Origin: Nannocystis sp. SCPEA4
Lineage (GTDB): Bacteria > Myxococcota_A > Polyangia > Nannocystales > Nannocystaceae
Assembly: GCF_026626685.1 (NCBI RefSeq)
Contig: NZ_JAPNJX010000021.1
Coordinates: 233,329 to 297,328, forward strand
Reading direction: 5' to 3'
DNA length: 64,000 bases
Shown: piece after piece, positions 30,000-44,653 of the stretch
Position numbering within the stretch: the first letter of the stretch is position 1
Layout of the letters: each line of letters starts with the position of its first letter
The notes under the pieces: model-generated
The model's database searches: none
What the model saw: the letters and a program-made list of their open reading frames with translations, nothing else
What the model was told of the DNA's origin: nothing
Made by a program: the position numbers and the translations under genes

Positions 30000-31500
<1,501 letters not shown>

Positions 31501-31943
31501 TTCGCGGACGATGGCGCCTGCGCGCGCTCGCCTGCGGCCCCTCCCGCCTGCGTCCCACTCCGCCGCTCCGTGCCCGCCTGCGGAGAGCGTCGCCGGCCCC
31601 GCTTGTCGCCGTGCGAGAGGCTCAGCGAGCGGCGGCGACTGCGACGCGACCGACTGCGGTCCGCTCGCGGCTCCGGCCCGGGTGCGGCGTTCAACATGAG
31701 TCTTGAGTAATGTCTCATAGGACAGGTCTTTTTCGGCATGTCATCAAAGCCAGGCCGGCCCGCTGTCCTCGGACGACGTATCGTTGCCCTGGCACCAGCC
31801 GGACCCGCAGCTTTTCCGGAGCTCGCGCGGGTCACACTCGTCTCGCGCCTACCCGTGAAGGCTGGCTCCCCGACCCGGTCTTCGCGGGACCCTGTGACCG
31901 ACGAGCGTGTCTTCGCGCCGGTCGATCTGTCCCTGGGGACAGA

Positions 31944-43119: not shown

Positions 43120-43164
43120 GCCCCGGCGGATCGGGGACGACGTACCGGACGACGGAACGTACTA

Positions 43165-44381
43165 GTGCCGAGACCGGGTGTTACTGATCAGGTTGAGGCG
43201 CGAATTTGCGCCTCGCGCAAAAACCTGATCTACAGGCTTCATGAGGCAGAAGAAGCCGACCCGGCCGTGGTTCCCCGGGCTCAAGCTCAAGCAGGAAGAT
43301 CGAGAGCTCCTGCGTCGTAAGGCGCGGGAGCGGCTCACCGAGAGGACCTGGAAGCGGATCCGTGCGCTTCAGATGCTGGACGAGGGGTACTCGCTTGCAG
43401 CCACGGCGGCGGCGATCGGTTCGGCCGTTCCGTCGGTGCGTCGTGTCGGGGAGCGATATCTCGCCTCTGGCGTCGAGGTAGCGCTGAAGGATGCGAAGCG
43501 ACCACTTCGGCCACGAAGGCTCGACACGCGACAGGAGGCGGCGATCATCGCCATGGTCTGCGGGCCTGCCCCCGAAGGCCGCGCTCGATGGACGCTCATG
43601 CTCATCGTCGAAGAGAGCATCAAACGCGGGATCGTCGACGAGGTCGGTCGGGAGACGATCCGCGTGCTGCTCAAGAACCACGAACTGAAACCGTGGCGGG
43701 AAAAAAATGTGGTGCGTCCCACGACTGGACGAGCACTACGTGGCGCGCATGGACGACGTACTCGACACGCTCGCGCAACCGCAGGACGCGGCCGAGCCAG
43801 TCGTCGCACTCGATGAGCGGCCAGTCGTCCTCCGTGACTCTGCGCGGCAAGGCCGCTGCGCGTCACCCGGCCGGTTGGCGCGCATGGACTACGAATACGT
43901 ACGTCGCGGGACCGCGAACATCTTCTGCATCGTCGAACCGAAGGCCGGCCGTCACATGACCTTCGCCACGCCGAACCGCAAAGGCTGCGAGTTCGCGCGT
44001 GCGCTCCGGAAGATCGCCCGCCGATACTCCTCTGCGAGGACGATCCACCTGGTCATGGATAACCTCAGCACGCACAGCCAGAACTCCTTGTGCACAGCCT
44101 TCGGAGATCAAGCGGGACGTGCGCTGTGGAATCGCTTCACGGTGCACTACACACCGAAGCACGGCAGCTGGCTCAACCCCGCCGAGATCGAAGCGAGCCT
44201 GTGGTCACGCGAGTGCCTCGGGCGCCTGCGCATCGGCTCGCTCGCAGAGCTTCGCCGTCGAACGTCTCGATGGAACGCCGACGCTCACCGGCGACGCCGG
44301 AAGATCACCTGGCGGTTCACGAAAGAACGTGCCCGCTCCGTGTTCAAGATCGACCAGATCGATACGGCCCGGTCGCGGCAC
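43165..44381 (+). mobile_element. IS630-family (Tc1/mariner superfamily) insertion sequence, 1217 bp, flanked by TA (43163-64 and 44382-83).
   Basis: Its terminal inverted repeats are GTGCCGAGACCGGG... on the left and ...CCCGGTCGCGGCAC on the right, matching at 15 of 16 positions. It has nested subterminal inverted repeats. The transposase stop TAG is completed by the flanking TA. Confidence 0.8.
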
Positions 44382-44384
44382 TAG
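43241..44384 (+). pseudogene. IS630-family transposase (an HTH N-terminus plus a DDE_3 catalytic domain) split into two frames at an A7 tract (43701-43707). It is either a frameshift mutation or slippage-dependent expression.
   Basis: orfA 43241.. reads 'KPWREKNVV'. orfB 43707..44384 has 'IFCIVEPKAG', 'HLVMDNLSTH' and 'YTPKHGSWLNPAE' (a DD34E-like motif). orfB's frame is open from 43689. The two frames differ by +1, which a 1-nt deletion in the A-run would fix. Confidence 0.7.
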
Positions 44385-44543
44385 TGCCGCGACCGGGGCA
44401 TTTCGAGTAGTCCTCGCGCCGGGATCCGACAGGCTGGCAAGGCGCGAGGAGGGCGCATATCGGGCAATATGTAACCGACGAGCAACGCAGCCAGCGTGGC
44501 GGAGAACAAGCGAGGGCTGCTCGAAATGTCCCGGTCGCGGCAC
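44384..44543. mobile_element. MITE-like 160-bp element. Its 24-bp terminal inverted repeats are near-identical to the IS630 ends, and it is flanked by TA.
   Basis: GTGCCGCGACCGGGGCATTTCGAG ... CTCGAAATGTCCCGGTCGCGGCAC, with 1 mismatch. It shares the TA at 44382-83 with the IS630 copy. Confidence 0.7.
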
Positions 44544-44653
44544 TAGGAGCACGACTGGGGCTTGAAGGACGCCGAGTCGCTCTCGGCTCCAGCTTGCGTT
44601 TGCTCGGGGGAGAAGCCCGCAGGGACCCGCCTTCGCCGCCCCCTCGACGATCT

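Follow-up and report, generated by a model that had tools for sequence, protein, structure and literature searches.

According to Tenzen and Ohtsubo (1991), as cited in PMC2170065, the insertion sequence (IS) IS630 favours TA within 5'-CTAG-3', and ISY100 needs only its own transposase for cut-and-paste transposition into TA (PMC2170065). Frameshifting and transcriptional slippage have both been documented in the IS630 family (PMC5009743). As regards small repeats, RUP of Streptococcus pneumoniae is proposed to favour insertion in IS elements or close to them (PMC3049150). The present work concerns a 64-kb stretch of DNA of Nannocystis sp. SCPEA4 (contig NZ_JAPNJX010000021.1), analysed as a whole and called the window hereafter, in which an IS630-family IS stands directly beside a 160-bp miniature inverted-repeat transposable element (MITE). 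We consider it probable that the IS and the MITE are distinct mobile elements which belong to one IS630-type system and lie side by side in an intergenic spacer. IS630-type elements with MITEs are a textbook arrangement and the value of this case is descriptive; as far as the literature shows, the pair is undescribed in Nannocystis, and the literature yielded no paper linking MITEs with myxobacteria in a relevant way.

The sequence basis for SCPEA4 was the window together with protein records. The type strain of Nannocystis radixulma is NCELM; the isolate SCPEA4, described as "highly similar to NCELM", belongs to the same species (PMC10435759). All MITE copy counts given below refer to N. radixulma NCELM; the collection of species-representative genomes that was searched includes NCELM, not SCPEA4.

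An IS and a MITE in tandem with common ends

Read from the sequence, the order across the locus is TA, the 1217-bp IS, TA, the 160-bp element and TA, with the junctions gtaC-TA-[GTGCCGAGACCGGG ... CCCGGTCGCGGCAC]-TA-[GTGCCGCGACCGGGGCATTTCGAG ... CTCGAAATGTCCCGGTCGCGGCAC]-TA-Ggag (Table 1). The element borders and TA positions of a preliminary description of this locus proved correct to the base. Each of the flanking TA dinucleotides lies within CTAG, and the target before insertion would have been gtaC-TA-Ggag. The end motif GTGCCGNGACCGGG (GTGCCG[A/C]GACCGGG) has four exact matches in the window, which are the four element ends, as compared to 0.01 expected from shuffles. When two mismatches were allowed, the count was no longer informative (9 matches vs. 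11.4 expected).

The left and right inverted repeats of the IS (IRL and IRR) match at 13 of 14 positions, with a likeness that extends to 25 of 40. The outer 14 nt of the MITE agree with IRR at all positions and with IRL of the adjacent IS at 13 of 14, and over the first 23 nt the identity to IRR is 19/23. The single mismatch reported earlier between the 24-nt termini of the MITE was found at position 15 (G vs. A), and the inverted repeat really extends to 34 nt (31/34 identical).

Table 1. Features of the IS-MITE tandem, with positions in the window.
Feature	Position	Strand	Remarks
Left TA target copy	43163..43164	.	Inside CTAG 43162-43165; direct reading, CTAG list
IS630-family IS, 1217 bp	43165..44381	+	Inverted repeats and TA borders; aligned end to end with L037, L052 and L053
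IRL GTGCCGAGACCGGG	43165..43178	+	Weaker likeness to IRR up to about nt 40 (25/40)
Open reading frame (ORF) 1, 191 aa, helix-turn-helix (HTH) part	43241..43816	+	Pfam HTH_32, E = 3.8e-12; fusion frame stops at the G3A7 run
Candidate recoding site GGGAAAAAAA (G3A7)	43698..43707	+	Identical in four IS lineages
ORF2, 225 aa, DDE catalytic part	43707..44384	+	Pfam DDE_3, E = 1.5e-21
IRR GTGCCGCGACCGGG	44368..44381	-	Identical to both MITE termini
TA common to IS and MITE	44382..44383	.	Inside CTAG 44381-44384
Non-coding MITE, 160 bp	44384..44543	+	34-nt terminal inverted repeats 44384-44417 and 44510-44543
Right TA copy	44544..44545	.	Inside CTAG 44543-44546

The IS and its relatives

The 380-aa protein obtained by fusing ORF1 and ORF2 scored 203.1 bits on NCBIfam NF033545 (transpos_IS630, an equivalog model with a cut-off of 100 bits), in a single stretch that runs across both ORFs (residues 38-344). 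Together with the Pfam matches to HTH_32 (47 bits) and DDE_3 (77 bits, covering positions 2-145 of the 146 of the model), this bears out the earlier assignment to the IS630 family. The length of the IS falls within the range of about 1.0-1.4 kb used as a test for the family. On motif inspection only, candidate catalytic residues of ORF2 are D36 (ALDERP), D118 (VMDNLS) and E160 (LNPAEIE). ORF2 continues through IRR to the final base of the IS, and its stop codon TAG (44382-44384) consists of the duplicated TA and the next G.

The ORF2 product is 100% identical to the IS630 family transposase P0001 of SCPEA4, and this protein is on record in the strain, in identical form, under at least four accessions and on five contigs. 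The upstream ORF of 711 aa likewise shows 100% identity to an SCPEA4 protein. Exact-sequence look-ups of ORF1 and ORF2 of the window and of P0001 gave no match. Relatives that align end to end with the IS of the window, at 76-89% nucleotide identity, were found in metagenomic sequences (L037/L041 and L052) and in a contig of 1223 bp (L053); over all pairs of the four lineages, identity ranges from 75 to 89%. All four lie in CTAG with TA on both sides. The 1223-bp contig, a close relative, consists of exactly CTA, a 1217-bp IS and TAG, and therefore the IS moves on its own.

The relative with 76% identity occupies one identical site across many soil metagenome samples (contigs L037-L047); its neighbours, within a type VI secretion locus, are a gene with a PoNi_C domain and a small ORF upstream of vgrG. 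Within the IS of the window, an inverted repeat (GATCAGGTTGAGGCGCGA / TCGCGCAAAAACCTGATC) is found at 43186-43230, between IRL and the start codon of the transposase. Its core GCGAATTTGC, and also CTGATCTACAGG right before the ATG, are kept in all four IS lineages (4/4). A leader hairpin and an inner binding site are two possible roles of this repeat.

Copies of the 160-bp element in N. radixulma NCELM

The whole 160 nt of the MITE folds, with DNA parameters, into one long hairpin (-62.3 kcal/mol, z = -11.3). The ORFs inside it are mechanical and of at most 42 aa, and coding support is lacking for the longer frames that extend across it. An Rfam search of the MITE gave no match at E ≤ 1, and a scan of it for promoters and terminators found nothing, the hairpin having no T-run.

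We scanned 185,579 species genomes with GTGCCGNGACCGGGNCNTNTCGA, the pattern common to IRR and the MITE ends, and found 23 loci in NCELM. Fourteen of these are full-length copies of 160-161 bp that are 92-99% identical to the MITE of the window by BLAST and alignment; three more are shorter, at 56, 79 and 87 bp, but retain both ends, and several are one-ended fragments. The copies are spread over many contigs, none is beside an IS, and no bias was seen in their orientation relative to the adjoining gene (3 vs. 3). Seven of the 14 full-length copies have the flanks cTA...TAg, and 12 of 14 have TA on at least one side. Thus, the insertion at TA dinucleotides claimed in the preliminary description applies here and to most other copies. 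The other flanks of the full-length copies read GA, TG, AA, TC, TT or CC. On sequence grounds, we class the 160-bp element as a true MITE.

The left flank, in the orientation of the window MITE, is not cTA in nine NCELM copies (L001, L003, L013, L015, L017, L019, L021, L023 and L027), where it reads cGA (5), cTG (3) or cAA (1). The right flank of these copies is TA, except in L017 (TG), L023 (CC) and L021, in which the right end is absent. The cTG flanks could be CTAG changed to CTGG.

Genome-wide counts of both elements had been proposed as a check; the MITE was counted in NCELM, and the IS in SCPEA4 through ORF2 records only. The counts bear on the idea that the 160 bp belong to one longer IS in which the end sequence is repeated internally, an idea for which only the adjacency itself speaks. 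The preliminary description would have been overturned had the 160-bp segment been unique and always part of the IS. The 14 full-length copies of NCELM stand alone, 160-bp copies have their own TA flanks, and relatives of the IS end exactly at GGCAC-TAG, so that a longer IS is extremely improbable.

The end pattern also matched in Rhizobium and related bacteria, within a conserved coding sequence reading THMVRVPGPGRFELRLPDG that may belong to a gene of the glutamine-synthetase type; these matches are not mobile-element ends. A different MITE, of 95 bp and with the same termini (GTGCCGCGACCGGGGCGTG), is present in a Myxococcales metagenome-assembled genome (L026, 5660-5754) and is identical to one in metagenomic contig L059. 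In L026 it lies between convergent genes for a topoisomerase IB and a zinc alcohol dehydrogenase.

The orthologous locus in NCELM

The orthologous locus of NCELM (L067) was reached through the orthologue of the upstream gene and has the same gene order, with a nucleotide identity of 98% for the 690-aa gene and 95% for the convergent sulfatase gene. Its 216-bp spacer contains neither the IS nor the MITE. Since both elements are missing at this site, both insertions are specific to the SCPEA4 lineage, and through the pair two strains of a single species have come to differ. Transposition of the IS is suggested indirectly by the same absence at the orthologous site and by the four or more identical ORF2 records; both the IS and the MITE are real and probably recently mobile.

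The spacer itself (43120-43162 and 44546-44653 of the window, as compared to 8074-8289 of L067) is far more diverged than the genes, with a difference in length of about 60 nt. In NCELM, the IS has left no trace but a rearranged relic (L032, 7800-7957), which joins its final 90 bp (91% identical) to a segment of ORF1 in inverted orientation (IS positions 261-339). The upstream 711-aa gene has metagenomic orthologues (L048-L051, 78-92% nucleotide identity), but these do not serve as empty sites, as homology ends at the stop codon and the downstream genes differ. The likeness of the right flank GGAGCACGACTGGGG to an element end is a coincidence, a related native sequence being present in NCELM.

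The joint absence from NCELM also makes the order of arrival inseparable, as would be expected if the IS and the MITE were one composite unit of 1379 bp that moved in a single transposition through the left end of the IS and the distal end of the MITE. These outer ends do pair as a valid inverted repeat (17 nt, 94% complementary), and TA within CTAG stands on either side of the block as a whole. Against this, the repeat in the 1223-bp contig is the IS alone, the MITE alone is found at at least 14 loci, and the TA between the two elements is what two successive insertions leave. Moreover, the junction CCCGGTCGCGGCACTAGTGCCGCGACCGGG was not found by pattern matching elsewhere in the species-representative genomes or the metagenomes of the JGI. 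We therefore regard a composite unit as quite unlikely and prefer two separate insertions. The JGI metagenomes were scanned twice: the MITE repeat pattern had no matches, and a looser pattern retrieved coding-sequence coincidences and the already known 95-bp MITE only.

Split transposase and probable recoding at the G3A7 run

The frame of ORF2 is +1 relative to that of ORF1, and the overlap of the two ORFs holds GGGAAAAAAA. With one nucleotide fewer in the mRNA, or with a +1 ribosomal shift at AAA-AAU, the two halves would be joined as ...LKPWREKMWCVP... This agrees with unsplit homologues (50-59% identity), which read LKPWR[K/E]KMWCVP or ...MWCVA at the point of junction; one of them, P0020, has REK, just as predicted for the fusion. 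The first element of the tandem would be an autonomous IS whose HTH and DDE ORFs are joined at the conserved G3A7 run, either by an RNA polymerase that drops one nucleotide or by a ribosome that shifts +1, and without recoding only the 191-aa DNA-binding product of ORF1 would be made. Slippage of the polymerase on the A-run and the ribosomal shift appear to us equally good candidates; AAU would be expected to be a rare codon at 71% G+C. The preliminary description had spoken of an autonomous-sized IS630 copy, and the family and the size hold; a split transposase that needs recoding was absent from it.

The G3A7 run and its 40-nt context are conserved in the four IS lineages, where the differences consist of three synonymous positions only. 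In all four, both ORFs are intact and without extra stops. The ratio of non-synonymous to synonymous divergence (dN/dS) is 0.07-0.12 in each ORF for six of six pairs (0.07-0.12 in ORF1 and 0.08-0.12 in ORF2), at synonymous divergences (dS) of 0.4-1.4. On this evidence from sequence the split is programmed recoding and not decay, because it has been kept in four lineages and because dN/dS is about 0.1 for both halves.

In the variant L047 and in a relative at greater distance (L065), one G is missing and the ORFs are in frame, which means that the split clade carries a fixed one-base insertion that has to be bypassed. L047 comes from one soil sample, with a one-G deletion that joins both transposase ORFs. 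In-frame copies of this kind could be the active masters, and the copy in the window, with its ORFs in different frames, would then be a dead, frameshifted pseudogene, so that nothing at the locus would be autonomous. Such decay is very unlikely, given that the extra G has been retained in four lineages at a dS of up to 1.4 with both ORFs intact and dN/dS at about 0.1, that SCPEA4 has at least four identical ORF2 records, and that recoding is established in the IS630 family (PMC5009743).

A stimulatory stem-loop was sought 5' of G3A7 and its stability was no greater than that of shuffled sequence: the only upstream stem predicted, CCACG/CGUGG, of 5 bp and with invariant arms, gave z values from -0.4 to +0.5, and its arms are also constrained by codons.

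Target choice and a proposed origin of the tandem

The tetranucleotide CTAG is found at 10 sites of the window, as compared to 63 expected from dinucleotide-preserving shuffles, and the element junctions account for three of these. Each of the two elements begins with G and ends with C; consequently, insertion into C-TA-G rebuilds CTAG at both junctions. Both elements would insert at the TA of 5'-CTAG-3' and duplicate it. With CTAG rare in the genome and regenerated at the edge of a resident element, a second element may then enter the adjoining TA, and the outcome would be IS-TA-MITE-TA with one TA in common. The tandem would thus be due to target choice, and insertion beside a resident element is an expected occasional outcome. 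We infer both the order of the two insertions and the mechanism of recoding described above.

At about 10 junctions, the TAG stop codon of the neighbouring ORF is made of the duplicated TA and the first G of the element; four of these ten ORFs have Pfam support, and the others rest on length and on G+C content at third codon positions (GC3). In L026, the TAG stops of both convergent genes are likewise composed of the duplicated TA and the terminal base of the 95-bp element. As a TAG stop preceded by C is rebuilt on insertion, the gene is left intact. An element with G...C ends and specificity for CTAG would in this way regenerate its own rare target, which accounts for the tandem and for insertions that do no harm at the ends of genes.

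Possible mobilisation of the MITE in trans

The outer 14 nt of the MITE, identical to the right end of the IS, suggest that the MITE may be cut and pasted in trans by the IS transposase, and we hold this to be somewhat more probable than otherwise. An origin of the MITE as a deletion derivative of the IS was rejected, as its interior aligned to the IS with a score of 21, as compared to a shuffle mean of 21.2.

Several observations weigh against a single system of IS and MITE. That score leaves the interior of the MITE without similarity to the IS. The likeness of the ends, which the preliminary description had called near identity, stands for the outer 14 nt and beyond them consists of scattered positions up to nt 23; the remainder of the 34-nt repeat is peculiar to the MITE. 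Several NCELM copies have GA, TG or AA in place of TA on one flank. The genome scan recovered no intact copy of the IS from NCELM, and no NCELM protein belongs to the 90% cluster of ORF2; since NCELM has many MITEs and no intact IS, most of the MITE spread did not require the IS in its present SCPEA4 form. A comparison with empty sites in related strains had been suggested earlier, and NCELM does lack both elements, but its spacer is diverged, with indels and without CTAG, and thus offers no base-perfect empty site. Finally, no second tandem was found among the other 23 loci, so that regeneration of the target is not shown to be recurrent.

Part of this evidence would suit a MITE that is or was mobilised by another IS630-type transposase, with the IS beside it by coincidence. 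NCELM has about 20 MITE copies and no intact IS of the same lineage, the match is limited to the outer 14 nt, and the different MITE with the same termini in another Myxococcales genome indicates ends that are common to several elements. On the other hand, apart from copies of the MITE, the scan of 185,579 genomes returned a single IS fragment and coding sequence that is unrelated, with no element whose ends resemble those of the MITE over a greater length. The MITE termini are identical to IRR both in the window IS and in L053, whereas the more distant L037 and L052 have ends that resemble them less, and the MITE at this locus is new since the split from NCELM, in a strain with at least four identical IS copies. 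A different IS630-type transposase has for these reasons a minor, though real, likelihood, and we favour the transposase of the adjacent IS.

Hairpin variation among MITE copies

In 13 distinct MITE copies, 99.3% of the cells of the 34-bp stem pair; the share fell to 94.4% when the sequences were shuffled and to about 40% when the partners were slid. Changes on both arms occurred in four pairs (positions 15, 24, 26 and 27), and the one-sided differences were about 10 of the G:U type, in one orientation only, vs. two of the A·C type and one C·U. The copies are interrelated, so the pairing test is not decisive and gives a lead only. The pattern could stem from constraint at the RNA level, from arm-to-arm correction of a quasi-palindrome, or from few founders. 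It is unlikely, though worth stating, that the MITE is no mere passenger, its hairpin being preserved by RNA-level selection or active arm-to-arm correction, and that the IS clade is a second, mechanistically distinct case of recoding by loss of one nucleotide (G3A7) beside the Roseiflexus IS630. The variation seen would suit a transcribed structural module, such as a stabiliser of mRNA ends or a target of RNase III.

A further mobile element in the window

A second mobile element was seen at 30005-31578 of the window. It contains an ORF for an IS110-family transposase (30425-31396; Pfam DEDD_Tnp_IS110 and Transposase_20), with inverted repeats of 25 nt on either side, at 30005-30029 and 31554-31578, whose complementarity is 96%.

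Comparison with known systems

Within the IS630/Tc1/mariner family, the IS630 element of Shigella sonnei and the ISY100 element of Synechocystis also combine an HTH with a DDE part, have short inverted repeats, duplicate TA and measure about 1.2 kb. Unlike in these elements, the transposase described here is split and requires recoding at G3A7, its stop codon lies outside the element (the duplicated TA and the target G), and the host is a myxobacterium with 71% G+C in which CTAG is scarce.

A close parallel to the pair is that of RUP (107 bp) and IS630-Spn1 in Streptococcus pneumoniae, likewise a small non-coding repeat with termini like those of a resident IS630-family element, for which mobilisation in trans has been hypothesised (PMC3049150). 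The MITE of Nannocystis differs in sequence family and host, and it was found in only tens of copies, in one searched sister genome. In Photorhabdus, MITEPlu5 and the ERIC-like MITEs that go with the ISPlu3, ISPlu8 and ISPlu19 group are likewise of about 120-160 bp with a TA duplication, and they too resemble IS630-type elements at the terminal bases only and have a very strong predicted hairpin (PMC6267812). They are present in hundreds of copies, and their sequence is unrelated to that of the element described here.

As for the split transposase, the IS630 of Roseiflexus also has a transposase in two frames, which are joined when the transcript loses one nucleotide at a 10-nt XmYn motif (PMC5009743; PMC6211511), and the direction of that shift is the one required here. 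The Roseiflexus motif is T5C5 and has directly upstream a strong GC stem-loop, which stimulates the slippage, whereas in the IS of the window the motif is G3A7 and the upstream stem does not exceed shuffles. The conserved G3A7 split is a handy second system for low-level recoding in IS630 transposases.

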